The notes beneath the pieces are model-generated. The model was not told the DNA's origin. It searched no databases and was given only the letters and a program-made list of their open reading frames with translations. DNA of 64,000 bases from a virus: the IMG/VR virus record IMGVR_UViG_3300045988_183636; one strand, written 5' to 3'. Shown one piece after another: positions 8,622 through 54,064 of the stretch (the first letter of the stretch is position 1; every line of letters starts with the position of its first letter). A program made the translations under genes and the position numbers.

Positions 8622-8731
8622 ATGCATCACTCCTTTTATTTTAAAATAGCATATGTGTCTGTTGAATTCAATGTTCATATGTGCTATAATTAACCCAAAC
8701 ATAAGTTTGCTTTTGAAGGAGGTGAAAATCC

Positions 8732-34456: not shown

Positions 34457-34518
34457 GAAAGAAGCCGGGGAATCCCGACTTTTCTGCTGCATTGTGTGTA
34501 TATTTTAACGCCGCCTGC

Positions 34519-34591
34519 GGGATTCGAACCCGCGGATAAAGAGTTCAAAGCTCCCTGCGTTAACCTTTTCGCCAAGGCGGAGCACACCCGG
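34519..34591 (-). tRNA. tRNA-Gln (anticodon UUG), no encoded CCA
   Basis: manual fold: 3-bp D-stem, anticodon loop CUUUGAA, T-arm GCGGG-TTCGAAT-CCCGC; 1:72 mismatch. Confidence 0.6.
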
Positions 34592-34592
34592 A

Positions 34593-34660
34593 AGGACTCG
34601 AACCCTCGTTACCGGTTTTGGAGACCAGTTTCTGTCCATCAGACAGGTGCATAACAGGCG
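34593..34660 (-). tRNA. tRNA-Trp (CCA), compact 68-nt form with a reduced D-arm
   Basis: anticodon arm CUGGU-CUCCAAA-ACCGG matches Trp; T-arm GAGGG-TTCGAGT-CCTTC; D region is only a 4-bp stem with a 5-nt loop; acceptor stem has two G.U pairs. Confidence 0.45.
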
Positions 34661-34664
34661 ATAA

Positions 34665-34735
34665 TGGAATCGAACCATTGTTTTCTGAGTCAGAATCAGA
34701 TGTCTTACCATTGAACGAATCGCCCAGTATCCCCA
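34665..34735 (-). tRNA. tRNA-Gln (CUG)
   Basis: anticodon loop UUCUGAC; 3-bp D-stem; T-arm AATGG-TTCGATT-CCATT. Confidence 0.6.
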
Positions 34736-34737
34736 AA

Positions 34738-34812
34738 GGGACTCGAACCCTTAACCGACAGATTAGAAATCTGTTGCTCTTTCCAATTGAGCTATGGGGA
34801 TATATAGCGCAG
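34738..34812 (-). tRNA. tRNA-Arg (UCU)
   Basis: D-arm GCTC..GAGC; anticodon loop UUUCUAA in stem ACAGA/UCUGU; T-arm AAGGG-TTCGAGT-CCCTT. Confidence 0.65.
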
Positions 34813-34818
34813 ACACCG

Positions 34819-34907
34819 GGGATCGAACCCGGACAGCGGGTGTGCCGCATGCCACATTAGCAGTGTGGAGGGGTACCATTTACCTTTATATGTCTGCATA
34901 AGAGGCA
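34819..34907 (-). tRNA. tRNA-Ser (GCU), long variable arm
   Basis: 89 nt; anticodon loop CUGCUAA in stem CCACA/UGUGG; T-arm CCGGG-TTCGATC-CCCGG. Confidence 0.55.
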
Positions 34908-34912
34908 TCGGA

Positions 34913-34984
34913 GGGGATCGAACCCTCGCCTTCCGGGTTGCAGCCGGACGCCTTCGCCGTTTGGCTACGATGCCATATAATTCT
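34913..34984 (-). tRNA. tRNA-Cys (GCA)
   Basis: anticodon loop CUGCAAC in stem UCCGG/CCGGA; T-arm GAGGG-TTCGATC-CCCTC. Confidence 0.6.
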
Positions 34985-35014
34985 TCCCGATAAGAGAAGA
35001 TGAGCGCTGGGGCA

Positions 35015-35098
35015 GGGAGTCGAACCCTGATATCCTTTCGGAATGACGGTTTTCAGGACCGTTGCTTTACCAGTTGAGCCACCACAGCAAAAATAAAA
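35015..35098 (-). tRNA. tRNA-Ser (UGA)-like, long variable arm, unusual C33
   Basis: 84 nt; anticodon loop CCUGAAA; variable stem UCC-gaaa-GGA; T-arm CAGGG-TTCGACT-CCCTG. Confidence 0.5.
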
Positions 35099-35333
35099 GC
35101 ATACACCTCTCAATCGAAAGATGTATGCTTTGCAATTCCAGGTATTTCCAATATTCTCCCGGAAATTTCCCTACAATGACCACATTTCTTTCAATTTGAG
35201 ACAATATTTATTTGCACGACAACTACGCCAGATACATGACTGCGACTGACTCATACTTGCCTGTGAATATTGTCTCATTACTGCTGTAATCATTGATTTT
35301 CCCTTCCTTTCCTTGGTTTTCTTGAATATTTAG

Positions 35334-35407
35334 TGTGTCTGGTGGGACTTGAACCCGACGACCCCACGATTAAAAGTCGCGTGCTCTGCCAACTGAGCTA
35401 CAGACAC
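35334..35407 (-). tRNA. tRNA-Lys (UUU)
   Basis: canonical fold: acceptor GTGTCTG/CAGACAC, D-arm AGCTCAGTTGGCAGAGC, anticodon loop CUUUUAA. Confidence 0.7.
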
Positions 35408-35412
35408 ATAAG

Positions 35413-35484
35413 CGGATCAGGAGGGAATCGAACCCTCATCTTCCGGTAGACAGCCGGATGTACTAGCCGCTATACTACAGATCC
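35413..35484 (-). tRNA. tRNA-Asp (GUC)
   Basis: anticodon loop CUGUCUA in stem UCCGG/CCGGA; T-arm GAGGG-TTCGATT-CCCTC. Confidence 0.6.
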
Positions 35485-35488
35485 ATAA

Positions 35489-35561
35489 AGCTCCCGTCCG
35501 GCTTCGAACCGGAAACCTTCTGATTACAAGTCAGATGCACTACCAGTTGTGCTACAGGAGC
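35489..35561 (-). tRNA. tRNA-Thr (UGU)
   Basis: D-arm GCACAACTGGTAGTGC; anticodon loop CUUGUAA; T-arm TCCGG-TTCGAAG-CCGGA. Confidence 0.65.
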
Positions 35562-35567
35562 AGGAAC

Positions 35568-35638
35568 ACTTCCGACGGGTGCTGCCCCGCTATCTCCGCC
35601 GTGACAGGGCGGTGACTCTGTTGTTTGTCCTCGGAAGT
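35568..35638 (-). ncRNA. non-canonical tRNA-like element (8-bp acceptor-like stem, anticodon-like arm CCGCC-CUGUCAC-GGCGG, 4-bp T-like hairpin, no D-arm)
   Basis: ACTTCCGA...TCGGAAGT closing stem; sits inside the tRNA array at tRNA spacing. Confidence 0.35.
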
Positions 35639-35645
35639 AAATAAG

Positions 35646-35727
35646 TGCGCCGGGGAGGACTCGAACCTCCGGTGTTTCTTTGTGGCTGATTTACAGTCAG
35701 CTGCTGTCGCCTCTGAGCCACCGACGC
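35646..35727 (-). tRNA. tRNA-Tyr (GUA), long variable arm
   Basis: 82 nt; anticodon loop CUGUAAA in stem GCUGA/UCAGC; T-arm GGAGG-TTCGAGT-CCTCC. Confidence 0.6.
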
Positions 35728-35732
35728 ATAAG

Positions 35733-35804
35733 CTGGTCCGGAGGGTCTCGAACCCTCAACGCCCCGGTTAACAGCCGGGTGCTCTACCATTGAGCTACGG
35801 ATCA
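35733..35804 (-). tRNA. tRNA-Asn (GUU)
   Basis: D-arm AGCTCAATGGTAGAGC; anticodon loop CUGUUAA; T-arm GAGGG-TTCGAGA-CCCTC. Confidence 0.65.
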
Positions 35805-35805
35805 G

Positions 35806-35877
35806 AGCATGTGACGGGTCTCGAACCCGCCCGTCCTGCTTGGAAGGCAGGTGTGCCGCCAACAACACTTCACATGC
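35806..35877 (-). tRNA. tRNA-Gly (UCC)
   Basis: anticodon loop CUUCCAA in stem CCUGC/GCAGG; T-arm with TTCGAGA loop. Confidence 0.6.
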
Positions 35878-35942
35878 ATGCGGATAAAAGAAGTGCCTGT
35901 TTTCTCTTATCCATTCAGTTTTTTTACCGCATCGCTGCGGAG

Positions 35943-36014
35943 TGGACAGGAGTGGTAACGATCCACCCTGTAAGGATTTTCAGTCCTTCGCTAATCCATC
36001 TCAGCTACCTGTCC
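35943..36014 (-). tRNA. putative tRNA-Phe (GAA) with a non-canonical T-loop (ATCGTTA)
   Basis: perfect 7-bp acceptor GGACAGG/CCTGTCC, U8, anticodon stem AAGGA/UCCUU with loop CUGAAAA; lacks the TTCGA T-loop signature. Confidence 0.4.
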
Positions 36015-37289: not shown

Positions 37290-37622
37290 TTGAAATGTTT
37301 GACATGCAAGAAACACTGGTCGCAGGGAGGCCGCTGTTCAGAGAACGTGAGAAACTGCCTGCATTATGAGGAAGAACCAAGAGGAAAAATGGTCCGCACA
37401 GAACTGTCTTTTCGTATGGATGCAGAGGCGGAAACTCCGGTGGTCAGATTTGGAGAGAAAATACTGGTTTCCGATGGTTCAAAAGCGGTCGAGATGACTG
37501 TGGTCAAGATCAACTGGGTTAATCTTCGGGATATGCTCTGCAATGTATCCGCGGATTATCATGAGAATGAGATGCCGCGATTTGAGAAAGAAAAGAAGTT
37601 CAAAGCATTACATGGAAAATAG
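37290..37622 (+). CDS. hypothetical protein
   Basis: RBS AAAGGAGGAGG; 110 aa; stop abuts CRISPR mini-array 2. Confidence 0.5.
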   Translation: MKCLTCKKHWSQGGRCSENVRNCLHYEEEPRGKMVRTELSFRMDAEAETPVVRFGEKILVSDGSKAVEMTVVKINWVNLRDMLCNVSADYHENEMPRFEKEKKFKALHGK

Positions 37623-37728
37623 TTGCATTCCAGTGGAATGCATGGGGTGAAAGAAATAGGCAAATCGCATGACAATTTCTGAAATTAAATTGTTGCGCTC
37701 CCGTGGAGGGGGGCGTATGGATTGAAAT
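37622..37728 (+). CRISPR. CRISPR mini-array 2 (2 divergent I-C-like repeats, 1 spacer)
   Basis: GTTGCATTCCAGTGGAATGCATGGGGTGAAAG ... GTTGCGCTCCCGTGGAGGGGGGCGTATGGATTGAAAT. Confidence 0.55.
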
Positions 37729-38134: not shown

Positions 38135-38167
38135 TTGACGATTTTTTAAATGGCGCAATATGTATCA
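38135..38167 (+). promoter_or_regulatory. class-1 promoter
   Basis: ttgacgattttttaaatggcgcaatatgtatca. Confidence 0.6.
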
Positions 38168-38168
38168 T

Positions 38169-38316
38169 GTAAAGGTCATAAACCGAGCTGCCAGGGTTAT
38201 CGGCTGGCAGAAATCTTTTCGATATTTGTTTACACTCCGGGGAAACCCGGAAGGGGTAGTGAGGACGCAGCGTGTGCTGTTTCCGGGTTCGATTCCCGGG
38301 TATCCCTTTTGACTGC
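38169..38316 (+). ncRNA. conserved structured 5' leader, copy C (tRNA-like minihelix GGGTA..CCGGGTTCGATTCCCGG..TATCCC), part of a ~420 nt 5' UTR
   Basis: near-identical to copies A and B over ~95 nt, then a hairpin plus acceptor/T-arm module. Confidence 0.5.
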
Positions 38317-38585
38317 CACATACGGTCTTCTCAAAATTCAGCCGTCTGCGGCCTGTGGAACTTTCCACTGGACCAAAATAACGATAACCGCCAGAATAAC
38401 AGCAGCGTGCGTTGGCGTGAGAACTATCGGCGCACAGGGATTACTCCTTTCATATTTATCTATCAAACCTTTCCGTACATCGTATGGAAAGGTTATGGGA
38501 CAGCAGGTGCATAGACATGAACTATTCCGGGATCGTTTCCCGGATGTTCCATTTTTAAAACATTAAAACAAATCATAGGAGGGAA

Positions 38586-39316: not shown

Positions 39317-39420
39317 GCTGCATCATGTGCGGGGGTGTATGGATTGAAATGTCGGAGTATGGGTAAGAATCATATATATTCCTACGTTGTGCTCCTCCCG
39401 GTTGGTGCACGGGTTGAAAT
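39317..39420 (+). CRISPR. CRISPR mini-array 3 (2 divergent repeats, 1 spacer)
   Basis: GCTGCATCATGTGCGGGGGTGTATGGATTGAAAT ... GTTGTGCTCCTCCCGGTTGGTGCACGGGTTGAAAT. Confidence 0.5.
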
Positions 39421-41011: not shown

Positions 41012-41230
41012 GTTGCGCCCCATTGGGTGCATGGGTTGAAATCTTTATGACCTTCTGAAAAGTGAGGGCATCTTAGTTGCACCCCCGCAAGGGATGTATG
41101 GGTTGAAATTCAATAGAAACAGATGCATTCGAAGGCGTTACAAGTTGCACCCCGCGAGGGGTGTATGGGTTGAAATTGCAGAAAGCTCAGGATTGGAAGG
41201 TTGCATCCTATGGGATGCATGGATTGAAAC
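41012..41230 (+). CRISPR. CRISPR mini-array 4 (4 divergent repeats, 3 spacers; spacer 2 is almost identical to array-1 spacer 2)
   Basis: GTTGCGCCCCATTGGGTGCATGGGTTGAAAT / GTTGCACCCCCGCAAGGGATGTATGGGTTGAAAT / GTTGCACCCCGCGAGGGGTGTATGGGTTGAAAT / GTTGCATCCTATGGGATGCATGGATTGAAAC. Confidence 0.65.
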
Positions 41231-41261: not shown

Positions 41262-41304
41262 CAGAAAGGTCTGCAGTCAGTTAATCTGGCTGCAGATTTT
41301 TTTT
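41262..41304 (+). terminator. rho-independent terminator
   Basis: tctgcagtcagttaatctggctgcagatttttttt. Confidence 0.6.
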
Positions 41305-41333
41305 GCAATTTTTTAAAAATTTTCCAAAATCTT

Positions 41334-41365
41334 TTGACGATTTTTTAAAAGGCGCAATATACATA
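41334..41365 (+). promoter_or_regulatory. class-1 promoter driving an ORF-less transcript
   Basis: ttgacgattttttaaaaggcgcaatatacata. Confidence 0.55.
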
Positions 41366-41369
41366 TTGA

Positions 41370-41570
41370 AGGGATAAACAGGGGCTTACCGTTTGTTTCT
41401 TCAATAAGAGTTTTTCTCTTATATGCCTCCTTAAGTTTCCTGCGCTGCATTTACAGCATTTTGGCAGCGCAGGGGGAATCCACAGGACTGCATTTGACGT
41501 TGTGTGGCGGCCTGCTCATCCGGTTCAACCCCGGAGGATTCCCTTACCGCTTATTTTTGCGGAGACAAAA
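41370..41570 (+). ncRNA. putative small non-coding RNA with a tRNA-like module (7-bp acceptor-like stem GGAATCC/GGATTCC, T-arm TCCGG-TTCAACC-CCGGA) and a terminal hairpin
   Basis: promoter to terminator-like hairpin with no ORF; the T-arm region ctgctcatccggttcaaccccggaggattccc is homologous to ctgttcatccggttcgagttcggaggattcc in the leader at 10925. Confidence 0.4.
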
Positions 41571-41595
41571 ATTTTAAAAAATATTCAAAAATTCT

Positions 41596-41626
41596 TTGAC
41601 GATTTTTTAAAAGGCGCAATATGTGT
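41596..41626 (+). promoter_or_regulatory. class-1 promoter of the cas operon
   Basis: ttgacgattttttaaaaggcgcaatatgtgt; its first ~40 transcribed nt duplicate those downstream of the 41334 promoter. Confidence 0.6.
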
Positions 41627-41668
41627 ATTGAAGGAATAAACAGGGGCTTGCCGCTGTTGATTACCAGA

Positions 41669-41700
41669 GTTAAAAGTTGTGCCCCTATGGGGTGCATGGG
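41669..41700 (+). promoter_or_regulatory. degenerate CRISPR-repeat-like sequence in the cas5 5' UTR
   Basis: GTTGTGCCCCTATGGGGTGCATGGGTAATAAG has the repeat hairpin but a mutated 3' handle; sits 16 nt before cas5. Confidence 0.5.
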
Positions 41701-41715
41701 TAATAAGAGAAAGGA

Positions 41716-42390
41716 ATGGAAAAAGAAAAAATGGGAGTGAAACTAAAAGTCTGGGGAGATTACGCATTGTTCACCAGACCAGAACTGAAAACTGAACGGT
41801 ATACATACGATGTGATGACACCGTCGGCGGCTAGAGGAATTCTGGAATCTATCTACTGGCATCCGGGACTTCGGTGGTATGTAGACAAGATTCATGTATT
41901 AAATCCGATTGCCACTACGAGCGTGAGAAGAAATGAACTTCTCAGTAAGATACCAAAGTCAAATATGCTGCAGGCATACAACGGCGGGGATGTGAAACTG
42001 TATAACTCGTCAAGAGACGATATTATCCAGAGGGCATCTGTTATTCTCCGGGATGTCTGCTATGTGATTGAGGCGCATTTTGAAATGACAGGGAAAGCGA
42101 GCCCAACAGACAGCCCGGCAAAGTTTATAAGTATCTTTAACAACAGGGCAAGAAAAGGGGCATGTTATTCGATGCCGTATTTTGGTGTAAGGGAATTCCC
42201 GGCACACTTTGAACTCTGCGAAGGAGATGAAAAGATCCCATCCTACTATGAAGGACTTCCGGATAAAGATCTCGGGCTGATGCTTTATGATCTGGATTAC
42301 TCCTGCGGTAGAGATATCCAGCCAATGTATTATCATGCGATTATGAAAAACGGCGTTATTGACGTTGGGAACAGTGAGGTGCTTCGATGA
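41716..42390 (+). CDS. cas5: Cas5c (Cas5d) of type I-C CRISPR-Cas
   Basis: KLKVWGDYALFTRPELKTERYTYDVMTPSAARGILESIYWHP matches the Cas5d N-terminal signature; start may be the second ATG at 41731. Confidence 0.8.
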   Translation: MEKEKMGVKLKVWGDYALFTRPELKTERYTYDVMTPSAARGILESIYWHPGLRWYVDKIHVLNPIATTSVRRNELLSKIPKSNMLQAYNGGDVKLYNSSRDDIIQRASVILRDVCYVIEAHFEMTGKASPTDSPAKFISIFNNRARKGACYSMPYFGVREFPAHFELCEGDEKIPSYYEGLPDKDLGLMLYDLDYSCGRDIQPMYYHAIMKNGVIDVGNSEVLR

Positions 42391-44126
42391 TCCTTCAGTC
42401 ACTTGTGAAATTATATGAAACACTTGCGGATCAGGGAAAAGTGTCCCGTCCTGGCTGGTGTAATGCAAAGGTATCCTATGCGGTGGTTTTAAACCATGAT
42501 GGGACGATTAAAGATATTGTTTCCGTGAAACAGAAAGTGAAGAGAGGAAAGAAGACTGTTGAAATTCCAATAATTATGCAGGTTCCAGAGATGGTCACCC
42601 GCGCTAACAACATTGCCTCCAGCTTTCTCTGCGAAAATGCAAAGTATCTCTTTGGGATTGACGAAAAGATGAGTTTGCGTACACTGGAATGTTTTAAGGC
42701 GGCAAAGAAAAAACATCTTGATATTCTTGATGTTGTGGATTCACCTGTAGCACAGACGGTATGTAACTTTTTCCGTTCATGGGATCCGGAACAGGCGTTG
42801 GATCAACCGGCTGTTGCAAAACTTGCAGAAGAGTTTTATAAAGGCGGAAACCTCGTTTTTGAAGTAGATGGGGAATATGTGCATGATAATGAAGAAGTCC
42901 GCAGGGCATGGATGGATTACAGCAGTGTACCATATGAAATGGTAACTGGAAGATGCCTTATTACTGGAGAGGAAGCGGAGATTGCCCGCACGCACGGGAA
43001 AATCAAAGGAGTTCCGGGAGCACAGTCATCTGGCGCGTCGCTTGTATCATTTAACGGAGCATCCCTTGAGTCTTATGAAAAAACACAGAGCTACAACGCG
43101 CCGATTAGCACCTATGCGGCGTATGCATATGTGACCGCGCTGAATTACTTGCTTTCTACGGACGGGTATCACAGCAAGGTAGGAGGTTCCATGGTGGTTT
43201 TCTGGACAGATTCCGGGGATGTGGATGATGTGAGCAGACTGCGGAAGATGATGGGAAGCATCAATGAAAAGGATCACACCCCTACAGATACGGATGAAAA
43301 ACTGTACGTCCTCTGCCTTGCACCAAATGCCGGGCGAATTGCAGTCCGGTTCTTCTATGAGGATGCGATCGGGGTAATCTGGGAAAACCTGTCCGAACAT
43401 GCCAGTCGGATGAAGATTGTAAAACCAGTATTTGAGGATCAAGAATTTATCAATATCTGGCAGATGCTCATGGAGACAGTCAACCAGAATCTTACAGATA
43501 AAACACCTGTCCCGCATATGTCAGCAATGACGTTACAGTCAGTCATTTCGGATACACCGTATCCGCAGAGTCTGTATGCAGGTGTGTTATCTCGTATCCG
43601 CGCGGAGCACAAAGGTGTTACTTACAGAAAAGCATCGATTATTAAAGCTTTTTTAATAAAGAACTACAAATGGGAGGAAGGAAAAAATATGGAAGCATTA
43701 AATGAAGGCTGTAAGGATCGGGCATATATCCTTGGAAGACTGTTTGCGGTTATGGAAAAGGCACAGAAAGAAGCAGTTGGCAATATCAACCAGACAATTT
43801 GTGATAAGTTTTACAATTCCGCGTGCACAACACCAAGATCGATCTTTCCAGTACTGATCAGGCTATCTAACAGTCATTTAAGTAAGTTGAAACGGACAAA
43901 ACCGGGGAGAGGATATTATTTTACAGCTAAAATGCAGGATTTAATGGATAAAATTCCGGTAACAGATGATGATCCGGGATTCCCGCGGCGTTTCTCATAT
44001 GAGGATCAGGGTAAGTTTGCACTTGGTTATTATCATCAGATGCGGGCGGAATATACAAGCAGTAAGTTAAAAGATAATGATTCAGAAGGTGATCAGACAA
44101 ATGCAGAGAATATGGAGGAAAACTAA
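42387..44126 (+). CDS. cas8c: Cas8c (Csd1) large subunit, type I-C
   Basis: MILQSLVKLYETLADQGKV... N-terminus; 579 aa; 4-nt overlap with cas5; position between cas5 and cas7. Confidence 0.75.
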   Translation: MILQSLVKLYETLADQGKVSRPGWCNAKVSYAVVLNHDGTIKDIVSVKQKVKRGKKTVEIPIIMQVPEMVTRANNIASSFLCENAKYLFGIDEKMSLRTLECFKAAKKKHLDILDVVDSPVAQTVCNFFRSWDPEQALDQPAVAKLAEEFYKGGNLVFEVDGEYVHDNEEVRRAWMDYSSVPYEMVTGRCLITGEEAEIARTHGKIKGVPGAQSSGASLVSFNGASLESYEKTQSYNAPISTYAAYAYVTALNYLLSTDGYHSKVGGSMVVFWTDSGDVDDVSRLRKMMGSINEKDHTPTDTDEKLYVLCLAPNAGRIAVRFFYEDAIGVIWENLSEHASRMKIVKPVFEDQEFINIWQMLMETVNQNLTDKTPVPHMSAMTLQSVISDTPYPQSLYAGVLSRIRAEHKGVTYRKASIIKAFLIKNYKWEEGKNMEALNEGCKDRAYILGRLFAVMEKAQKEAVGNINQTICDKFYNSACTTPRSIFPVLIRLSNSHLSKLKRTKPGRGYYFTAKMQDLMDKIPVTDDDPGFPRRFSYEDQGKFALGYYHQMRAEYTSSKLKDNDSEGDQTNAENMEEN

Positions 44127-45039
44127 GATGAGCACACCAATTAAGAACAGATATGATTTCGTAGTATTATTCGACGTAGAGAATGGAAATCCGAACGGTG
44201 ATCCGGATGCCGGAAATATGCCGAGAGTTGATCCAGAGACTGGCATCGGGCTTGTGACAGATGCCTGCATAAAGCGCAAGATCCGTAATTATGTGGAAAC
44301 TGTAAAAGAAGATGCAGCCGGGTTCAAGATCTATATTAAAGAGGGGGTCCCGCTGAACCGGAGTGACCTTAAGGCAGTCGAAAGTCTTGGTATTGACGTC
44401 GGTGACGACAAAAATGCACTTGAAGATGTAAAGAAGCTGAAAAAGACAGATGAAGATGTGGATCTTAAGCTCCGTGACTATATGTGTAGTAATTTCTATG
44501 ATATCCGTACATTTGGTGCTGTCTTGACTACCTTTACAAAGGCGGCATTAAACTGTGGGCAGGTACGTGGCCCGGTACAGATTGGTTTTGCAAAAAGTAT
44601 TGATCCTGTTTTCAGCCAGGATATTACTGTAACCAGAGTTGCAATCACAACGGAAAAGGATGCGGAAAAGAAAAATACAGAAATGGGAAGAAAGAGTATT
44701 ATTCCTTATGGACTTTACCGTGTGGAGGGATATATTTCTGCTAATCTTGCCCGTAAGACCACCGGCTTTTCTGAAGACGATCTGGAACTGCTTTGGGAAG
44801 CAATCATTAACATGTTTGAGAATGACCATTCCGCAGCACGCGGGAAGATGGCAGTGCGTGAGCTCATCGTATTCAAGCATAACAGCGAGCTTGGCAATTG
44901 TCCATCGTACAAACTGTTTGAAACTGTTGATGTTAAGAAGAATGATGGTGTTGAGTTTCCTCGTAAATATTCCGATTATGCAGTGACTATTCATGAGGAT
45001 GCGATTCCGGATGGCGTGACAATGACTCGCAAAATCTAA
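44127..45039 (+). CDS. cas7: Cas7c (Csd2) backbone subunit, type I-C
   Basis: RYDFVVLFDVENGNPNGDPDAGNMPR signature; RBS GGAGGAAAAC before ATG 44127 (the ORF-track start at 44077 is inside cas8). Confidence 0.8.
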
Positions 45040-45289
45040 AAAGATTTCCAGAGATTACAAGGCAACCCGCGTTTTGCGGGCTGCATCTGCTTGGGTTATG
45101 CCGAAATGTAGAATTCCGGTGCGAACTGAAAGCTTACATAGCTTCTCTGGGAGACTCGCACCGGAAATGGAGGTATTAGTGTACAAAAAGAACACAAAAC
45201 CCAACTGTATAAGGCCGTTTGAGAACAATTAATTAGAGGAATTGTTTATATTTTGGCGATCGGGAGAGTTGTTTCTGTTCACTTTTACA

Positions 45290-46001
45290 GCTACGCCCCA
45301 TGGAGGGGCGTATGGATTGAAAATACCGCAACAATTAAAGGCAATGAAAATCTTGTACGCTACGCCCCATGGAGGGGCGTATGGATTGAAAATGATTGTT
45401 ATTGTTTTTTATTCATGGAGAGGAAAGCTACGCCCCATGGAGGGGCGTATGGATTGAAAAGTAAGGTTTCGTCTCGAAGCCTTTATTCTGTTTTGCTGCG
45501 CCCCATGGAGGGGCGTATGGATTGAAATACCAAAATCTTTTGACATTCTTATAAATGGTAACAGCTACGTCTTATGGGGTACGTATGGATTGAAATCATA
45601 ATAATTGTAGAGATCTCAATACAAAATAAAGCTGCGTCTCATGGAATACGTATGGATTGAAATGAAAAGGCGAGTTTGCGAAAGCAGATATTGGAATGTT
45701 GCGTCTCGTGGAGTACGTATGGATTGAAATTCCAACTTTAACTACATAACTATCCTGATAAACTTGCTGCACCCCATGGAGAGTGTATGGATTGAAATTT
45801 AAAAAATCATGGATAACATCTGCGATAAGACGTTGCACCTCGCTAGGGGTGTATGGGTTGAAATTTCCATAATCGGTAGCCAATTATTATCATTAGGTGT
45901 TGCACCCCATAGAGGGTGTATGGATTGAAATTATATAAAAATGATGAATATGTAAAAAAAATAAAAGAGTTACGCTCCATGGAGTGCGTATGGCTTGAAA
46001 C
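45290..46001 (+). CRISPR. main type I-C CRISPR array (11 repeats, 10 spacers), leader-proximal repeats conserved and distal repeats degenerate
   Basis: consensus GCTACGCCCCATGGAGGGGCGTATGGATTGAAAAT; spacers 33-36 nt; the last repeat GTTACGCTCCATGGAGTGCGTATGGCTTGAAAC lies 70 nt before the 46072 CDS. Confidence 0.85.
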
Positions 46002-46071
46002 CTCTTATTTTTTTAAAGATATCACAATTACGCCCAAAGTGGGCTTACGTAAATTTAAAGGAGAAAAGTAC

Positions 46072-46719
46072 ATGTCAAAAACAAAAGGAATATCAAAAAA
46101 GAAAGATATATTAAAGGTATTTTGGAATGAGTGTGCAGTATTTAAGGTAGTTGTTTGTATTCTTGCGTATGTGATACTCGGCTTTATCAATATACCAATT
46201 AACAGGTGGCTTACATTTCATGTACCTAAATGGTCAGATGGGAAACTACATGATATAACAGGATCATTTTTTGTTCTTCCTATCCTTGAAGTATTAGCGG
46301 TCACTTTAATTTATCTTATCGCTAATGGATGCTTTTATTTCATCAGCAAGATGATCGCGTACAGGAATTACTGTTACATTCCGCTTACGGAAGATGAAAT
46401 TAAAGGAAAGAAATTTAAGAATGCAAATGAGTATTTTTCCTATGTCCTCAATGTCCTTTCCTATGGTTTTAAGAATGAAAAAGAAAATCTCCAGGTTAGT
46501 GATGATGATCTTCGAGAAATGCTTATAACTTGTCTGATTGTATTCCCTGATAATGGGACAATATTTCAGATAAAACCAGAAACTGCGTGGAATGTTTCAG
46601 ACGACATCCTTTTCTCCGAAGCCGTTGAATTGAATTGCGGAAAAGCAGAAATAATTGATAAGCATGTTGTATTGTCTGGTGATAATAGAAACGGCAAAAG
46701 AGAAGAATATACAGTGTGA
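46072..46719 (+). CDS. 2-TM membrane protein, array-adjacent paralog family member 2
   Basis: MSKTKGISKKKDILKVFWNEC...; paralog of 24659..25306; RBS AAAGGAGAAAAG. Confidence 0.65.
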   Translation: MSKTKGISKKKDILKVFWNECAVFKVVVCILAYVILGFINIPINRWLTFHVPKWSDGKLHDITGSFFVLPILEVLAVTLIYLIANGCFYFISKMIAYRNYCYIPLTEDEIKGKKFKNANEYFSYVLNVLSYGFKNEKENLQVSDDDLREMLITCLIVFPDNGTIFQIKPETAWNVSDDILFSEAVELNCGKAEIIDKHVVLSGDNRNGKREEYTV

Positions 46720-46770
46720 AAGTTGATAGGTCCTCATTCGAATTTTTTATCAAATTATGGAGGAATGGCA

Positions 46771-47295
46771 ATGGAAACAATAAGAGATTACGAAGCAATG
46801 GTATACGTACTTGAACATAACCGGAAAAGTGCCGGAACAGGTGAAAATATCAGTTGGAAGAAAATATCATATGAAAAGTTAAGTAAAGAGATGAAAAGCT
46901 ATACCGGACGGATTAAGCGTATGCTTGGAGAACTTATATTAAACGGACGGATAGAGATTAAAACAGAACGTCCTTTTGTTTACCGTGTTCTTATTAAATC
47001 CGTGTTTACAGAAGAAGAATTTAAGGAATACCAGGATACCCGTCTTCTTGGAAAATTCCATGACTCATTATCAAAATTAACTGATACTGTGGAAACTGCT
47101 TCCGAAACAGTACAAGCTGTTTGGCGTCCAAGTGAAGCTATGCAGAAACGCCAGACGGGTGCGGGGAATACGTTTGTGTATAGCAAAGGGAATTCTTTAA
47201 GCGTGCATGAGAGTTTTGAACGGTCAAAACAGAACCGGGAATACCGGCCGGCAGGAGAAAAGGCAGGAAAGAGAAAAGCTGTAACGATATGGTAA
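46771..47295 (+). CDS. hypothetical protein
   Basis: RBS GGAGGAATGG; start moved to METIRDY. Confidence 0.5.
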   Translation: METIRDYEAMVYVLEHNRKSAGTGENISWKKISYEKLSKEMKSYTGRIKRMLGELILNGRIEIKTERPFVYRVLIKSVFTEEEFKEYQDTRLLGKFHDSLSKLTDTVETASETVQAVWRPSEAMQKRQTGAGNTFVYSKGNSLSVHESFERSKQNREYRPAGEKAGKRKAVTIW

Positions 47296-47323
47296 TTAAA
47301 AAGTAGGAAGGAAGTGAAGCGGA

Positions 47324-47788
47324 ATGTATGGTCTTATTATTAAGAAAAAATGGTTGGATTTAATCATGAGCGGGCAGAAGACTCTGGAGATCCGCGGAAG
47401 CAGGACTTCCCATGCAGGAGAAGAGATTGCGCTTCTCGAAAGCGGATCACAGAAGATCCGTGGTTTTTGTACGATTAAAGAAGTAACGGCCTTGGATAAA
47501 GGAAAATGGGAAGCACACAGGGATCGCCATTGGGTGGATGTGCCGTGGGAAAATCTTATTAAACGATATAAGACGCCATATGCGTGGCACTTATCTTCAA
47601 TCACACCAACGGAGGAACTTACATATGAGCATCCAAAGGGTGCCGTGATCTGGGTTAACCTGGATCATGTTCCTGTATTTAAAAAAATGAACAATAAAGG
47701 AAGAAATTGTCATGAACAAATCAAGGGAACCAGCTTGCACAAATATTTCATCTCGGGAGGGTTCTATGGAAAATATCATAACTTATAA
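47324..47788 (+). CDS. ASCH-domain (PUA-like) protein
   Basis: KKKWLDLIMSGQKTLEIRG beta-barrel signature. Confidence 0.55.
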   Translation: MYGLIIKKKWLDLIMSGQKTLEIRGSRTSHAGEEIALLESGSQKIRGFCTIKEVTALDKGKWEAHRDRHWVDVPWENLIKRYKTPYAWHLSSITPTEELTYEHPKGAVIWVNLDHVPVFKKMNNKGRNCHEQIKGTSLHKYFISGGFYGKYHNL

Positions 47789-48170
47789 AACGACAAACTT
47801 ATTTTCAACACCAGATCTGGTTTCTCTTTTCACATCTGTTGGATGGGTTAATGAAAGTGCAGAATATCCTAATCGATTGGAAAATGCAATGTATCATTCA
47901 GATATTGTTTTTAGCGCATGGGACGGAGATAAGCTTGTTGGTTTATTAAGTACCATAAGTGATACAATGCATGTTTATATAACATATCTTCTAGTCGATC
48001 CATCTTATCAAAATAGAAAGATAGGTACTAAATTGTTAAATATGTTTGAAAAACATTATGTTAATTACAAAAAAGAACTTAAAACGGAGAAAGCATCAGA
48101 TTATTATAAACGCTTTGGGTGGCATTCGGATTCTGTGGGGATGGTTAAGAATGATCTTCCCCCTTTATGA
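47766..48170 (+). CDS. GNAT-family N-acetyltransferase
   Basis: LLVDPSYQNRKIGTKLL acetyl-CoA-binding motif A; overlaps the 3' end of the ASCH gene in another frame. Confidence 0.55.
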   Translation: MENIITYKTTNLFSTPDLVSLFTSVGWVNESAEYPNRLENAMYHSDIVFSAWDGDKLVGLLSTISDTMHVYITYLLVDPSYQNRKIGTKLLNMFEKHYVNYKKELKTEKASDYYKRFGWHSDSVGMVKNDLPPL

Positions 48171-48325
48171 TTATTGATTCTTAACAAATGCACCAATTGC
48201 GAAGTAGAAGGAGACGCAAATGTCATATATGAGTGAGTGGATTTATTCCGAAGAAGATGCATATTTTATTATTTTAGCAGTTGCTGATATTGTAACAGGG
48301 ATTTCAACACTTGGAGGTTTTAACC

Positions 48326-48751: not shown

Positions 48752-48988
48752 GAAGCTATTACTATGTATTTCATTACTCTTATCTAAGTTTTGTTAGAAT
48801 TAAAGAGGTTTGTCATGCTTATTGTTTTGAGCGTCATTATAGTATTTATGGGTAATTCAGAATGGGTATCCTGCAAGAATTGTAATAGAAAAATCTGAGG
48901 CTATTAATTCATTATTCTTTCCTAAAAATACAGAAGCCAAAGATTAGATTATTCTTGCAAAAATGCATTTAAGGAGGAACAAATTTTA

Positions 48989-49477
48989 ATGAATACGTTG
49001 GAAAATTTAGAAATGGTATTGTTTGACTTTGATGATACGCTGTGTATACATAGTCATCGCTCAGATTCTTATGAGGAACTGATGGAATATTTGTCATATA
49101 TTCATTCAGGTGAAACATTTCCAAAATCATGGAATAAATCAAAACCGAATTTGCAGTTAAAGAAATTCATGGATTATCTTGCTTATAAGAATATCCCTAT
49201 GGGTTTAATTAGCGGAGTGCGTGATTGTAAGACTGCGGAAAGAAAGATCAAATGGGTTAAAGAAAATTACGGTTACTTACTGGAAAATTACTGTGTATCC
49301 AGTCAGGAACAGAAGATTATTGAACTTAAGGTCCTTGCAAAGGTTAACAGGCTTCATGAAAACCAGATTGCTATTATCGACGATTTATATCCCAATCTTG
49401 AAAAAGCAGAAAGTGAAGGTTTCGTTGCTCTTTCCCCAATGCAGGTTGTCAATTTATTTAATGAAATATCTAAATAG
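48989..49477 (+). CDS. HAD-superfamily hydrolase (putative 5'-nucleotidase)
   Basis: FDFDDTL DxDxT motif I; IDD motif near the C-terminus. Confidence 0.6.
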   Translation: MNTLENLEMVLFDFDDTLCIHSHRSDSYEELMEYLSYIHSGETFPKSWNKSKPNLQLKKFMDYLAYKNIPMGLISGVRDCKTAERKIKWVKENYGYLLENYCVSSQEQKIIELKVLAKVNRLHENQIAIIDDLYPNLEKAESEGFVALSPMQVVNLFNEISK

Positions 49478-49666
49478 AGACCTACTGATACTGCCGAGAT
49501 TGCACAAGATTACGATTTTCCATTGCAGGATATGTGAGAGATAATTTGTTGAATTAGAGGTGATTATATTGGATTTATTTGGAAGAGATTTATGGACCCA
49601 AGCAGATGAAGATTTTTTAGGTAGAAAGTGTTATTTGTTGCAAAGTACGGTTGGAAGGGGATTTTA

Positions 49667-50662
49667 ATGAATAAGTTGGAAAATTTAAAAATGGTGCTGT
49701 TTGACTTTGATGATACATTGGCTGTGCATAGTCAAGGACATCGCATAAGCGATCATCTGATGAAATATATGATAAACGTGCATTCTGGAAGTAAAGAATT
49801 ATGGAATACCTCGAAACCGAATTTACAATTAAAGAAATTCATGGATTATCTCGCCTGTAAGAACATTTCTATGGGATTGATTAGTGGAGTACATGATTGT
49901 AAAGCCGCGGAAAGAAAAATCGAATGGGTCAAAGAAAACTATGGGTATTCATTAGAGAATTATTGTGTATCCAGTCAAGAACAGAAGATGATTGAATTAT
50001 CAACCATTGCAGAGGTTAATGGATTTCATGAAAGCCAGATTGCTCTTGTTGATGACTACTATGAAAATCTCGGAAATGCTGAAAAAATGGGATTTACAAC
50101 ATTTTCTCCTATGGAAATTGTTAATTTGGTTAATTGCTTTCAAAATACAGATTTGGAAAAAATGTTGATCAGCCCTGATCCTGGGTGGGGGATAAATTTA
50201 CGAAATAAATACATATTCTGGGATATAGACGGCACTTTAGCGGAATACCGGTTTAACGGGCATGTTTCAGATCCGGAAGGTACTGATAACGGTATGAGTT
50301 TAAAAGAAATTGAGGATGGGGTTTTTCTCAAGAGAAAACCATCTTATCATATGCAGATGGTATTGTCTACATGTGGCGCGAAGCAGAACATTGTAATGGG
50401 GCACTGCCAGGTACAGAAAGAAATGGATGATAAACAGCTCTGGCTGGACAAGTATTATCCAAGTATCACAGAACGTTTACTTGTGTCGGAAGATAAATCG
50501 AAAGCAGATACCATTTTGCAATACTGTAAGGATCATGATATTAGCTTGCAAGATGTGGTATTTGTTGATGACACGATTCCATTTCTCCGCGAAGCAGAGC
50601 GAAAAGGGATTAAATCATTTCATATCAGCAGTTTTTTGGATTGGGATTTCGAAAGGAGGTAA
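49667..50662 (+). CDS. tandem HAD-domain hydrolase (paralog of 48989 plus a second HAD domain)
   Basis: FDFDDTL in the first domain, IFWDIDGTL and VFVDDT in the second. Confidence 0.6.
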   Translation: MNKLENLKMVLFDFDDTLAVHSQGHRISDHLMKYMINVHSGSKELWNTSKPNLQLKKFMDYLACKNISMGLISGVHDCKAAERKIEWVKENYGYSLENYCVSSQEQKMIELSTIAEVNGFHESQIALVDDYYENLGNAEKMGFTTFSPMEIVNLVNCFQNTDLEKMLISPDPGWGINLRNKYIFWDIDGTLAEYRFNGHVSDPEGTDNGMSLKEIEDGVFLKRKPSYHMQMVLSTCGAKQNIVMGHCQVQKEMDDKQLWLDKYYPSITERLLVSEDKSKADTILQYCKDHDISLQDVVFVDDTIPFLREAERKGIKSFHISSFLDWDFERR

Positions 50663-50666
50663 CATA

Positions 50667-51734
50667 ATGGATTTATGTATTGACTACAACTTGTTGTTTG
50701 CAGAATTAAAGAAACATGGTTTCTGCCTTGGTTTTTCAACAATTGAGAATGTTGCGCTTTCAAAGGATCAGGTGGATTACTGGCATCGTGGCAATTTCAT
50801 TTGTTGTGTAAAATCAAAGGGATTAATTGCAACTTATGTATGCTTTATTACTGGTGATGAATTGAAAGATGAATTCTCTACTTATAAGAGTGTTCATGAG
50901 TATTTGAATTTCACAGATACTATAGAAGCTCAGCGGAGACCATCAATCATTAAAGCATTTGAAAACGTTTTATTTGCCAGTTATTCTGATGCAGTTGCTA
51001 AATATAATCAGATGCTTGCTGTTTTTCCAAAATTTACACCAGCATTTAAAGAATTGTTTGCAGAAGAAATGGATGCTCTTGCAGTATCTAATACGTCAAT
51101 TCAGGTTAAACCTGATTTGTCTAAAATTTATATAAATAAAGAGCATGAATATTGTTACATCTCAGCTGTTACACCGGATAGTGTTTGTGTTAACCGGCTC
51201 ACCGCTGTATCTTTTGAAAAAGAGCTGGATTATCGTGAATTGCAGCAATACACTGCCGTTCCAGAAGTTTTTGACGAATTACGTTCACTTCTGTTAACAG
51301 TATTACACGGTCTTTCTTCTGTTATCAAGATAAATAATCTGCCTGAAGATAACAGTGTTTCTTTGAAATATTATAATGAAACCGATGAATTCCGTGATAC
51401 AAGATATACTGCAGTTGGTCAAAATTTCGAATTGATACTTATCAATATGCTTGGTGCTTCCTGTTATTTGAGTGATAAGTCTCGTACACATGATTCAGAT
51501 AATAAGTGTCACGCATACGATATTGCTGATGTTTTTTCAGCAAATGCTAAAGCCAAACGTATTCATGATTTTCTTGTAAAACTCATGAAAGAGTTTTCGC
51601 CTATTTTAGCAGGTGACCTGGCATTGCGGAAGCAGCTTTTCGATTATTTGTATACACTTGAGGATGGTGATAATTCCGTTAATGCGCAGCAACCAGGGTT
51701 GCCAGATAATACGGATTCTTTGCCTCATAAATAG
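50667..51734 (+). CDS. hypothetical protein
   Basis: RBS GGAGGTAACATA; start moved to MDLCIDY. Confidence 0.5.
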   Translation: MDLCIDYNLLFAELKKHGFCLGFSTIENVALSKDQVDYWHRGNFICCVKSKGLIATYVCFITGDELKDEFSTYKSVHEYLNFTDTIEAQRRPSIIKAFENVLFASYSDAVAKYNQMLAVFPKFTPAFKELFAEEMDALAVSNTSIQVKPDLSKIYINKEHEYCYISAVTPDSVCVNRLTAVSFEKELDYRELQQYTAVPEVFDELRSLLLTVLHGLSSVIKINNLPEDNSVSLKYYNETDEFRDTRYTAVGQNFELILINMLGASCYLSDKSRTHDSDNKCHAYDIADVFSANAKAKRIHDFLVKLMKEFSPILAGDLALRKQLFDYLYTLEDGDNSVNAQQPGLPDNTDSLPHK

Positions 51735-51762: not shown

Positions 51763-52545
51763 ATGTATACTAAAATATATGCTATTTTTACGACAGTGGT
51801 TAAATATTTTATTCTGGCGTGTGGTATATCCTTATTACTATTTTTCTTTTATGATAATGAATTAGAACCAACAAAAGACAATATTAAATGTGTAGTTAGC
51901 ATAATATATATGAATTTATTAACTGCAGTAGTAATTACATATTTATTTAAAAAATTAATTGGTAGTATTAAGGAAGACGTTGTAAATGCAAAGCCGTATG
52001 GAAAAGCGCAAATAGGAAATAAAGAAAAAACGTATGAGAATATAAGAGAAATGATTACTGTTCACGAAGCAGGTCATGCAGTAATGTCTTATTTAAAAAA
52101 TGCAGATACAATTATTGTGAATGCTTCTCTTTGCGAACCCAATGTAGTATCGGGATATGATAGCGTAGTAAATGCAGAAGTTGTGAAAAGCATGATACTT
52201 ATTAAATACGCAGGAGCAATAGCAGAAGAATTAATATTTGGACATTATGATGCAGGTTCTTTTCTCGGATCTAATTCAGATTTTAAAAGTGCGACGGAAT
52301 TAATTAAGGGCTACATTACTATGATTGATCCAGAACGGAGCAAAACACTATTAGATGACGAACTGAAAGATCAACTTATAGATATATCAAAAACTTTTTA
52401 TCAAGAATGCAAAGAATTACTTAGCTGTAATATAAAATTAGTTGAACATTTATCTAATGTATTGACATACAAAGAAAGATTAACCACAGAAGAAGTACTT
52501 GAGATAATAAATGCTTTCAAGGAGAGCAAAGAAATAAATACTTAA
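51763..52545 (+). CDS. membrane-anchored M41 (FtsH-type) zinc-metallopeptidase domain protein without an AAA module
   Basis: two N-terminal TM segments, then ITVHEAGHAVMSY (HEAGH zinc site) and a downstream Glu. Confidence 0.6.
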   Translation: MYTKIYAIFTTVVKYFILACGISLLLFFFYDNELEPTKDNIKCVVSIIYMNLLTAVVITYLFKKLIGSIKEDVVNAKPYGKAQIGNKEKTYENIREMITVHEAGHAVMSYLKNADTIIVNASLCEPNVVSGYDSVVNAEVVKSMILIKYAGAIAEELIFGHYDAGSFLGSNSDFKSATELIKGYITMIDPERSKTLLDDELKDQLIDISKTFYQECKELLSCNIKLVEHLSNVLTYKERLTTEEVLEIINAFKESKEINT

Positions 52546-52723
52546 ATTTTTATCATTTCCGGATGTCACGATTATCTGCAATGATTGCCACGGCAGAGGC
52601 TTTGCGGTTGTTGCAGAGAGTATTCGTGAACTGTCCGACAATATAAAGCAGCTGATTGAACAGAACAATAAGGATTGAAGATGATATCCTGTATTTAATG
52701 TCAAAGTGAAAGGAGAATTGTAT

Positions 52724-52906
52724 ATGGTTGTTATTATTGGAGCAATAATTGTTTTTTGCCTTTTCATGGGAGTTATTCTTATAATTTCCGGATGTCACGA
52801 TTATAACGAAGCAAACAGAGGAATGGAGATTGGCATTGGTATTTCTCTTATCCTCGCCCCAATTGTTGTTACGTTGACATATCTGGCTTTTGGAGGTGTG
52901 TTGTAA
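52724..52906 (+). CDS. small membrane protein
   Basis: RBS GAAAGGAGAATTG; two hydrophobic helices. Confidence 0.4.
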   Translation: MVVIIGAIIVFCLFMGVILIISGCHDYNEANRGMEIGIGISLILAPIVVTLTYLAFGGVL

Positions 52907-53098
52907 TTTCTTGCGGAGCAGAGCAGAGGAAGGCTCACCGGGCTCATGACCTGGGTGTCGGATGTTCGATTCCTTTCTCCGCAATTAATTTTAAAAAAGG
53001 GAGGTTATAACATGTTCTAACTGATTAAAAAACATAAACAAGCATTCGTTCAAAAGAAAGATTCGTATGTGAAAAAAGGATGGGAGGAAAAGAAAATC

Positions 53099-54064
53099 AT
53101 GGGAATGGATGTAAACATGCTTGCCTGCGTGCGGGCACTTGCAGAAAACAGAATACAGGATGCGAAGAAATACGCGGTCTGCTGTTGTGCCAATGACAAT
53201 ACGAAGAAAAATGAGAGCCAAGTCAGAAGATGTAAAAATCTTCTGCTCAACGGTCCAAATATGATCGAGCTGCCAGCAAATCTTAACGGGCTCCTACGTA
53301 TGGAAGATGTGTCCAGCTTTCATGCCGAGCGGTACTACCTTGGGAAAACCCAGTGGGATCTTTTTGAAAAGATTAAACGTGGTGTGGCGGTCACGCTTAA
53401 ATTAATGGAGTATGGGATTCCCTACAAAAACAGCACCCTCATATACGGCGTGCCCGGCACTGGGAAAACGGAGTTTGCCAGATATGTGGCGTATTCCCTG
53501 GGTATTCCTTATGCATATATTAATTTTTCCTTCCTGATCGACTCATTCATGGGGAATACATCGAAGAATATCCAGCGTGTGTTCGATTTCTGCAAAGGGC
53601 AGAAATGTGTCCTGATGCTTGATGAGATCGACTGTATCGGATTAAAGCGCGGCATAGGAGGAAATGGGGGACCAGATGGGGAAATATCAAGAACGACCAT
53701 TTCTCTTATGCAGGCATTGGACGATCTGACAGACGGGCAGATCATCATTGCTGCCACGAACCGGTACGACCTGCTTGATCCCGCTTTGTCCAGACGGTTC
53801 CAGAACCATGTGGAATTCCGTCCATTCAATTTTGAAGAAAACAGGGAGATGATGGAAAAATTCCTGGCGGCAGTGGACGAGTCTTTGCTGAGTGTTATGG
53901 AAATTGTAACGTATGCAAGAGAAAACCATACGCAGGCAGAGGTAACCGGGCATCTCATTGAAGTACTGACGCGCAAGGTATCGCAGGAAGTGGATGTGGA
54001 AGCGGCGCTGGAAGCACTAAAAAGTGGGAATGGAAGAACAGATGACTGGGAAAAGCTTTTCTAA
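53099..54064 (+). CDS. AAA+ ATPase of the FtsH/CDC48 clade (stand-alone)
   Basis: Walker A GVPGTGKT, Walker B VLMLDEID, sensor-1 ATNR, Arg finger region; RBS GGGAGGAAAAG. Confidence 0.7.
   Translation: MGMDVNMLACVRALAENRIQDAKKYAVCCCANDNTKKNESQVRRCKNLLLNGPNMIELPANLNGLLRMEDVSSFHAERYYLGKTQWDLFEKIKRGVAVTLKLMEYGIPYKNSTLIYGVPGTGKTEFARYVAYSLGIPYAYINFSFLIDSFMGNTSKNIQRVFDFCKGQKCVLMLDEIDCIGLKRGIGGNGGPDGEISRTTISLMQALDDLTDGQIIIAATNRYDLLDPALSRRFQNHVEFRPFNFEENREMMEKFLAAVDESLLSVMEIVTYARENHTQAEVTGHLIEVLTRKVSQEVDVEAALEALKSGNGRTDDWEKLF

Follow-up and report, generated by a model that had tools for sequence, protein, structure and literature searches.

What does a CRISPR effector complex do for a mobile element when it comes without its nuclease? 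Although catalogs of phage and plasmid CRISPR effectors without a nuclease exist, what these effectors target in nature is seldom known, and their function is conjectural. Here, we address this question for a type I-C module in a stretch of 64,000 nucleotides (nt) from a virus, IMG/VR virus record IMGVR_UViG_3300045988_183636. We refer to this whole stretch as the window, and coordinates are those of the window unless a contig is named. The module is a concrete and testable case and combines a canonical, compact three-gene I-C Cascade, defined guides and two natural targets flanked by a protospacer adjacent motif (PAM). We suggest, giving the idea an even chance, that this effector-only module silences a host toxin and the replication of a competitor independently of a nuclease, in the manner of CRISPR interference (CRISPRi).

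A type I-C effector without nearby nuclease or adaptation genes

The effector genes lie on the + strand in the following order:

41716-42390, + strand: cas5c, endonuclease for the precursor of CRISPR RNA (pre-crRNA) and Cascade subunit (NCBIfam TIGR01876, 8.6e-52)
42387-44126, + strand: cas8c, large subunit (TIGR01863, 8.1e-119, covering residues 3-558 of 579 amino acids (aa))
43690-44126, + strand: putative internal cas11c, small subunit (in-frame ATG at 43690 within cas8c, with GGGAGGAAGG ahead of the ATG)
44128-45039, + strand: cas7c, backbone subunit of 303 aa (TIGR02589, 1.7e-102)

The initial annotation described three intact and tightly packed Cascade genes, and the profile searches bear this out. 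All three proteins align full length with their NCBIfam models and score above the curated cut-offs by a wide margin, cas5c and cas8c overlap by 4 nt, and Cas5c matches the D. vulgaris Cas5c structures 7KHA/8DEX over its full length (1e-65). The set of genes that marks an I-C effector (Cas5c, Cas8c and Cas7c) is, in other words, complete at the locus. In I-C systems, Cas11c is reportedly made by internal translation of cas8c, a finding from 2020 attributed to McBride et al.; judged by its sequence, the internal start in cas8c is a putative source of Cas11c here.

The nearest Cas8c homologs are ~50% identical and belong to complete chromosomal I-C loci of Roseburia and other Lachnospiraceae, in which the genes are ordered cas3-5-8-7-4-1-2 plus array. 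Among 5.8 billion proteins, there is no Cas8c homolog intermediate between the element and this ~50% set, and no Cas8c relatives were found in IMG/VR and the GTDB representative genomes. By contrast to the homologous chromosomal loci, where the cas4-cas1-cas2 module is present, this module is absent 3' of cas7c in eleven contexts. Profile searches with the window proteins scanned and with the genes called in the 10-kb flanks gave no match to the Cas3, Cas1, Cas2 and Cas4 families, and the stretch free of cas3, cas1, cas2 and cas4 spans -51 kb to +28 kb of the operon. The earlier claim that cas3 and adaptation genes are missing is thus upheld for the neighborhood of the operon. It could have failed in two ways, i.e. 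if these genes were found just outside the window or if a standard chromosomal locus had been split by assembly. The flanks contain none of them, and the effector-array arrangement is repeated in eleven contexts and is, therefore, not a chromosomal locus split by assembly.

Potential substitutes for Cas3 were also considered. The sole superfamily 2 (SF2) helicase (767 aa, 21788-24091) lies 17.6 kb upstream; its best matches are RadD and type I/IV restriction helicases, and it has no BLASTP similarity to Roseburia Cas3. A stand-alone HD protein (236 aa, 59921-60631) gives weak matches to Cas3 HD models (1e-5 to 7e-4) and better ones to HDIG/YhaM exoribonucleases. Because the two proteins are RadD/restriction-like and HDIG/YhaM-like, respectively, we grade the idea that they form a split Cas3 as unsupported. 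DinG had no match among the scanned window proteins, and the effector genes are type I-C by NCBIfam and not Csf.

Arrays, mini-arrays and a promoter family

The guides are encoded in one main array and in mini-arrays that are dispersed over the window:

45290-46001, + strand: main CRISPR array, 11 repeats and 10 spacers, same transcription direction as the cas genes
24266-24499, + strand: mini-array 24, four repeats with the outer two degenerate, 105 nt downstream of the promoter at 24160
37622-37728, + strand: mini-array 37, two repeats, the first degenerate
39317-39420, + strand: mini-array 39, two repeats and one spacer
41012-41230, + strand: mini-array 41, four repeats and three spacers, the last spacer 20 nt long
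41676-41707, + strand: repeat-like hairpin in the 5' leader of cas5c (GTTGTGCCCCTATGGGGTGCATGGGTAATAAG), stem intact, handle degenerate and overlapping the ribosome-binding site (RBS)

In the main array, repeats 1-3 are identical, repeat 4 has 2 differences and repeats 5-11 have 6-11 differences, in agreement with the 11-repeat array with pristine leader-proximal repeats described initially. Scanning the sequence with the 3' half of the repeat, which is conserved, located the mini-arrays and returned four of them, more than had been listed before, as well as the hairpin in the cas5c leader. RNAfold predicts this hairpin to have 8 bp at -11.6 kcal/mol and an 11-nt tail; we infer, tentatively, an autoregulatory role for it. 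A strong terminator (41263-41303) follows mini-array 41. Some spacers are 20-25 nt long, and one spacer is common to two mini-arrays, the middle spacers at 24364-24396 and 41110-41142 differing by 2 mismatches. Two further mini-arrays are present in a variant element region (contig L029, 13088-13180 and 17513-17605); their spacer is 25 nt long, GCAATCAGGCTGCGGATGCTACCGG, and its two copies differ by 1 mismatch.

The repeats retain the features of I-C repeats. RNAfold was run singly on 26 repeats and two canonical chromosomal controls. Most repeats form a hairpin of 7-9 bp followed by a handle of exactly 11 nt, UGGAUUGAAAU, and canonical Roseburia I-C repeats have the same geometry; the stem-loop and 11-nt handle (...AUUGAAAU/C) that identify an I-C repeat are both found here. 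The handle is identical to that in complete I-C systems, which are common in Lachnospiraceae. In all 20 repeats aligned by register, at least 6 of the 7 stem positions are paired, and two stem positions alternate between G-C and A-T (7 vs 10 and 12 vs 6 repeats, respectively) in a compensatory manner. On this sequence evidence, the repeat hairpins appear to be maintained; the weakened ones are those of repeats 5, 6 and 8 of the main array.

The “phage-type promoters” of the initial annotation correspond to a highly conserved 28-nt promoter-like motif, TTTGACGATTTTTYAAAWGGCGCAATAT, that has 10 copies in the window, all on the + strand, against 2.1 expected by chance, and that we describe as element-specific:

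10718, 12133, 21546, 24160, 30321, 33108, 37234, 38134, 41333 and 41595, + strand: promoter motif copies of ~28 nt each, from the motif scan
41595-41622, + strand: the copy TTTGACGATTTTTTAAAAGGCGCAATAT, directly upstream of the cas operon
41333-41360, + strand: second copy near cas, between mini-array 41 and the cas promoter

Copies stand ahead of the cas operon and of mini-array 24, and upstream of the transcription units that hold mini-arrays 37 and 39. The -10 of the motif is non-canonical, and a generic sigma-70 scan misses the promoter family, suggesting an element-specific transcription program. The same motif is present once in a Lachnospiraceae chromosomal islet (contig L036, 10202).

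Downstream of two of the element promoters, untranslated stretches (38162-38580 and 41361-41568) contain stable hairpins and motifs resembling the T-arm of transfer RNA (tRNA), i.e. GGTTCGATTCC at 38282-38300 and GGTTCAACCCC at ~41517-41535. Neither stretch has a match in Rfam or by ARAGORN, and both may be small RNAs.

Two natural targets and the case for silencing

Six spacers (A3, A4, M41b, A6, M41a and A1) were searched in IMG/VR, and A4 alone in a metagenome collection. Two spacers, both from the main array, have targets:

45529-45562, + strand: spacer A4, 33/34 match with a 5'-TTC PAM, over the promoter of a gene for a 29-aa Hol-Tox protein
45461-45494, + strand: spacer A3, 34/34 match with a 5'-TTC PAM, to an IMG/VR contig (L042, 9227-9260)

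The A4 protospacer, TTC|ACCAAAATCTTTTGACATTCTTATAAATGGCAAC, was found with 33/34 matches in nine human-gut contigs in one scan of the metagenome collection. It spans the TTGACA (-35) and the next 17 nt of a promoter that is homologous to the promoter family of the element. This promoter is followed, after ~100 nt, by an RBS and a 29-aa open reading frame (ORF), MITYSTLFEFCKLIVAIISLIFQIFNHKK, that scores 25.9 bits with Pfam Hol_Tox, a family of holin-like toxins (gathering cut-off 23.3). An element-type promoter and a solitary I-C-like repeat are present ~220 nt upstream of the protospacer. The cassette (L036, 10200-10650; also in L033, L038 and L041) has the order element-type promoter, solitary I-C-like repeat (GTACCATACAAGTGGTACATGGATTGAAAT), second promoter and Hol-Tox gene, and it could be a CreTA-like or abortive-infection module. 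The neighborhood is chromosomal, with pstCAB-phoU-phoPR, an ABC-F protein, hpf, ddl and murF, and the protein next to the target is 87-91% identical to Lachnospiraceae, Agathobacter and Roseburia proteins. The target-bearing Lachnospiraceae bacterium is presumed to be the host. The cassette is strain-variable: it is absent from the near-identical chromosomes L046-L049, which retain a second Hol-Tox gene. The A4 protospacer was not found in GTDB representative genomes, and no Hol-Tox homolog was found inside the window. In some contigs, tandem units of ~1.15 kb lie upstream of the A4 target cassette (L038, 1-2500). Each unit has an I-C-like mini-array of two repeats and, after it, a gene encoding a secreted protein of ~273 aa that has no assigned family.

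A4 also resembles the element's own ten promoters, with at most 24/34 matches (at least 10 mismatches) and in no case with a TTC at the PAM position. The closest self-matches, tied at 24/34, are the promoters at 41333 and 38134; at 41333, positions 2-16 match contiguously and TTT is at the PAM position. The likeness of A4 to the element's promoters suggests that A4 was derived from a homologous promoter elsewhere.

The A3 target lies in an integrative mobile element with two integrases, a PcfJ-like protein and a replication-initiation protein (rep), presumably a competitor. The protospacer is located ~100 nt upstream of the start of rep, where a short transcript runs antisense to the rep leader, and falls within a terminator-like hairpin of this transcript. 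In this region of the contig (9110-9260), a promoter on the + strand and a pair of terminator-like hairpins are oriented antisense to the leader of rep, and the arrangement looks like a countertranscript copy-control region.

The initial annotation had called for a search with the spacers and a check of the 5'-TTC PAM, and both protospacers that emerged follow a 5'-TTC. They are flanked by TTC on the strand predicted from the array orientation (2/2; chance ~2e-4 under uniform base composition). Identical repeats next to the leader, together with correct PAMs, imply that a real I-C adaptation machine made the spacers, at a time when the module was not yet trimmed or in trans from a host. The other searches were negative. 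A4, M41b, A6, M41a and A1 had no match in IMG/VR, sixteen concatenated spacers gave chance-level matches to cultured phages and plasmids, and no spacer self-targets were found in the window and all fetched loci at up to 20-27% mismatch. PAM-plus-seed matches of the mini-array spacers to own or host cas promoters were considered as well and did not exceed chance.

Based on these data, we suggest the following model. The element's own promoter family would drive transcription of the arrays, and Cas5c would cleave the repeats at the foot of their hairpins, which would give the canonical 11-nt handle. A Cascade of Cas5c, Cas8c with its internal Cas11c, and Cas7c would serve the main array and at least four mini-arrays, and the resulting complexes would bind TTC-flanked DNA targets. 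Because the locus is without Cas3, binding alone is taken to be the effect, i.e. CRISPRi-like occlusion or a transcription roadblock: the A4 guide would block transcription initiation at the Hol-Tox promoter and the A3 guide transcription into rep. The A4 target argues for silencing, because cutting of the chromosome would kill the carrier, if that bacterium is the host. We infer that the module is expressed, that its crRNAs are processed, that targets are silenced instead of cut and that the target-bearing bacterium is the host. The idea of a programmable silencer, raised in the initial annotation, has in this way gained two TTC-flanked protospacers, one in a toxin promoter and one in a rep control region; its alternative, that the Cascade borrows a host Cas3, is still in play.

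Several points weigh against silencing. Targets are known for 2 of ~17 spacers, and the targeting of regulatory regions rests on two cases. The A4 target is not among the promoters called by the generic sigma-70 scan, so that its call as a promoter is based on homology and position. The element is linked to the target-bearing bacterium at the level of the family only. It is possible that a distant cas3 or a novel nuclease partner is encoded elsewhere on the element, in the ~300 kb beyond the part read, and Lachnospiraceae I-C systems with an identical handle could supply Cas3 or take up the crRNAs. Finally, one variant of the element (L021) has a deletion that removes the C-terminus of cas8c, cas7c, the array and ~6 kb of downstream genes (window-equivalent intervals 43824-48317 and 49020-51309); therefore, the module is dispensable for maintenance of the element.

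The strongest competing explanation, which we regard as possible and clearly less probable than silencing, is that the Cascade of the element relies on Cas3 from a resident I-C system of the host and that targets are shredded, making the module a weapon against competitors, or that the crRNAs load into the host Cascade. The closest Cas8c relatives are in complete Lachnospiraceae I-C loci with Cas3, the 11-nt handle is the same as that of host repeats, the interference PAM is present at both protospacers and the A3 target is a mobile element. Moreover, the A4 module is variable between strains and absent in close chromosomes, as if selected against, and the use of host Cas proteins has been proposed for such phage systems (PMC7162821). 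However, Cas8c is ~50% identical to any host Cas8c, which makes compatibility with Cas3 uncertain, the A4 site is chromosomal and its cleavage would be lethal to the carrier if that bacterium is the host, and the module would depend on a host factor that is absent from many strains.

An unlikely alternative is a decoy for counter-defense, in which Cas proteins or repeat RNAs sequester parts of the host I-C system in a Racr/Cracr-like manner, or in which guides repress host cas or toxin promoters via the host Cascade. The several mini-arrays and degenerate repeats in the window, the solitary repeat in the chromosomal target locus, the short spacers of 20-25 nt and the one guide on a toxin promoter, as with Cracr RNAs (bioRxiv 10.1101/2024.10.29.618823; PMC10651486), fit this idea. 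By contrast, Racr/Cracr elements are not known to carry Cascade genes of their own, no spacer matches the cas promoters of three Lachnospiraceae I-C loci among full-length-like matches, and A3 aims at the replication region of a mobile element and not at a defense gene.

Even less plausible is that an I-C locus was captured and that the module is what is left of it, decaying and without function. The weakened hairpins of repeats 5, 6 and 8, the absence of spacer turnover across samples, the deletion variant L021 and the absence of the module from relatives of the element could be read in this way. However, each of the three ORFs is intact and exceeds its family cut-off by far, stem pairing is kept via compensatory changes, dedicated promoters are present, and for two spacers, matches of 33/34 and 34/34 to PAM-flanked targets persist; the uniformity of the arrays reflects a near-clonal population (99.9%) and not decay. 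For the same reason, array conservation was discarded as a sign of selection: identity between samples is 99.9-100% over the entire region, and conservation is, therefore, uninformative.

That the module guides RNA-directed transposition as a CRISPR-associated transposon (CAST)-like I-C system can be practically dismissed: Tn7-like transposons with Cas3-less type I effectors, I-C among them, are known (PMC11656645, PMC12669027), but the TnsA, TnsB, TnsC and TniQ families have no match among the genes located between 32 and 72 kb in the window frame, and the transposases present are of the IS200/IS605 and DDE insertion sequence (IS) types only and lie >30 kb from the module.

Returning to silencing, we speculate, as a long shot, that the module forms a CRISPRi circuit, natural and encoded by the element itself, directed at a “promoter trap” of the host that lies ahead of the Hol-Tox toxin gene. 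Here, the Hol-Tox promoter would mimic the element's promoter family, so that entry of the element would switch on the toxin and cause abortive infection. The A4 guide would tell the trap promoter (33/34, TTC) from the element's own ten promoters (≤24/34, no TTC). Its 15-nt PAM-proximal match to the promoter upstream of cas could, in addition, autoregulate cas, similarly to CreR.

Known systems and the carrier element

The locus shares with canonical chromosomal I-C systems (Roseburia, D. vulgaris) the proteins Cas5c, Cas8c (with a putative Cas11c) and Cas7c, the hairpin and 11-nt handle of the repeats, the 5'-TTC PAM and an array that lies downstream of the cas genes in the same orientation. 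However, it has no cas3, cas4, cas1 or cas2 nearby, its repeats are heterogeneous, its mini-arrays are dispersed, its carrier is mobile, and its array is short and the same in every sample read.

In huge phages, CRISPR systems without adaptation or interference genes have been described, among them an I-C variant with a helicase for Cas3, and repression has been proposed as their function (Al-Shayeb et al. 2020, PMC7162821). The present locus resembles this I-C variant in having a Cas5d-type processing enzyme, no Cas1, Cas2 and Cas3, compact arrays and a very large mobile genome, and in that repression without cleavage, or the use of host Cas proteins, is proposed. In contrast, the huge-phage I-C loci have a helicase in the place of Cas3 and a second system (Cas-phi), whereas the sole helicase here is 17.6 kb away and RadD/restriction-like; moreover, the present locus has full-length, canonical Cas proteins and no fewer than four additional mini-arrays, and the phage nature of its carrier is unproven.

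For plasmid type IV-A systems, nuclease-independent silencing is established. As in these systems, a class 1 effector without an adaptation module or nuclease is carried by a large mobile element, and we propose that it likewise represses transcription of competitor and host targets. The present module is an I-C derivative, however, without Csf proteins and DinG.

Cracr RNAs are encoded in mini-arrays of mobile elements and silence cas or toxin promoters (bioRxiv 10.1101/2024.10.29.618823). With Cracr and CreTA/CreR, the locus shares mini-arrays on a mobile element, a guide on a toxin promoter and, as proposed here, silencing by Cascade binding. Cracr RNAs hijack host Cas proteins and have partial complementarity to their targets, whereas the present element has its own Cascade and a near full-length match (33/34). 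Compared to CreTA, the toxin gene encodes a Hol-Tox peptide, and its association with CRISPR is putative. Finally, CAST systems including those derived from I-C also have a Cas3-less Cascade, used for target recognition only, as proposed here, but no Tn7-like transposition genes are near the module.

Thus, the locus belongs to none of the compared systems beyond being a type I-C effector. What sets it apart is the combination of canonical Cas proteins, no helicase partner, an own Cascade, and a main array together with promoter-driven mini-arrays. If silencing is true, it would mean that CRISPR serves mobile elements of the gut microbiome as a weapon of gene regulation directed at host toxins and rivals. 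In this case, the module would also provide a naturally Cas3-free I-C Cascade and promoter-driven mini-array formats for multiplexed CRISPRi in Clostridia.

The carrier is a giant, near-clonal mobile element of human-gut Lachnospiraceae. In exact-protein look-ups, the region recurs across many human-gut metagenome assemblies; for the M41-like protein (51763-52545), the index of the metagenome collection lists 998 blocks, and element contigs reach 264, 285 and 375 kb. The fetched copies are 99.7-100% identical to the window in long collinear stretches (99.9% overall) and differ by IS insertions, small replacements and the one deletion in L021. The arrays are identical in every copy read, without spacer turnover across samples.

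The initial annotation placed the module in a phage-like context. Phage identity is unproven: the 84 kb examined yielded neither virion nor conjugation genes, and phage-like traits (14 tRNAs, a CCA-adding enzyme and an NAD ligase) stand beside plasmid-like genes (PcfJ, LPD1, ParB in a variant and megaplasmid homologs). The gene content comprises the NAD ligase, the CCA-adding enzyme (3114-4496), the 14 tRNAs, TnpB/IS605, two DNA methylases, a flotillin, PcfJ-like and LPD1 proteins and an IetA-like ATPase, with ParB in the variant, and most element genes have no family assignment. Thirteen tRNA genes are clustered on the - strand (34508-36014) in a region that is otherwise almost all +, and a separate tRNA-Met is at 52911-52985. 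A 478-aa protein has its best full-length matches on Bifidobacterium megaplasmids. A 29-mer of the element had no exact match in IMG/VR, and megablast of 38-50 kb of the window against INPHARED phages and PLSDB plasmids gave no match. Identity with the “Inocle” oral elements was rejected on GC content (24-32% in those elements vs ~40% here).

A membrane protein had been counted as part of the arrangement. Two paralogs of 215 aa (46072-46719 and 24659-25306) are 51% identical and each is directly downstream of an array. The family comprises ~91 clusters in 5.8 billion proteins, and the relatives of the element found via this protein carry the gene and lack cas genes, arrays and the promoter motif. 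A tie between the protein and the arrays was, therefore, discarded, and the pairing is probably incidental. Because these relatives are without CRISPR parts, the module is an accessory insertion of this lineage.

Other features of the element concern defense, transposition and gene duplication. At 51763-54064, the M41-peptidase-like protein is near an AAA ATPase, with a small ORF and a tRNA gene in between. The ATPase matches models of the anti-phage protein IetA (PADLOC 1.2e-51; NCBIfam IteA 4.9e-44), and the two proteins are a candidate defense system. An IS200/IS605 element (TnpA and TnpB, 8196-9994) and a DDE-type IS (contig L011, 13057-14469) are present or absent between otherwise identical copies, which points to their recent transposition. 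Lastly, tandem paralogous genes for HAD-like hydrolases (48983-49477 and 49661-50662) have 78-86% nucleotide identity over ~290 nt.

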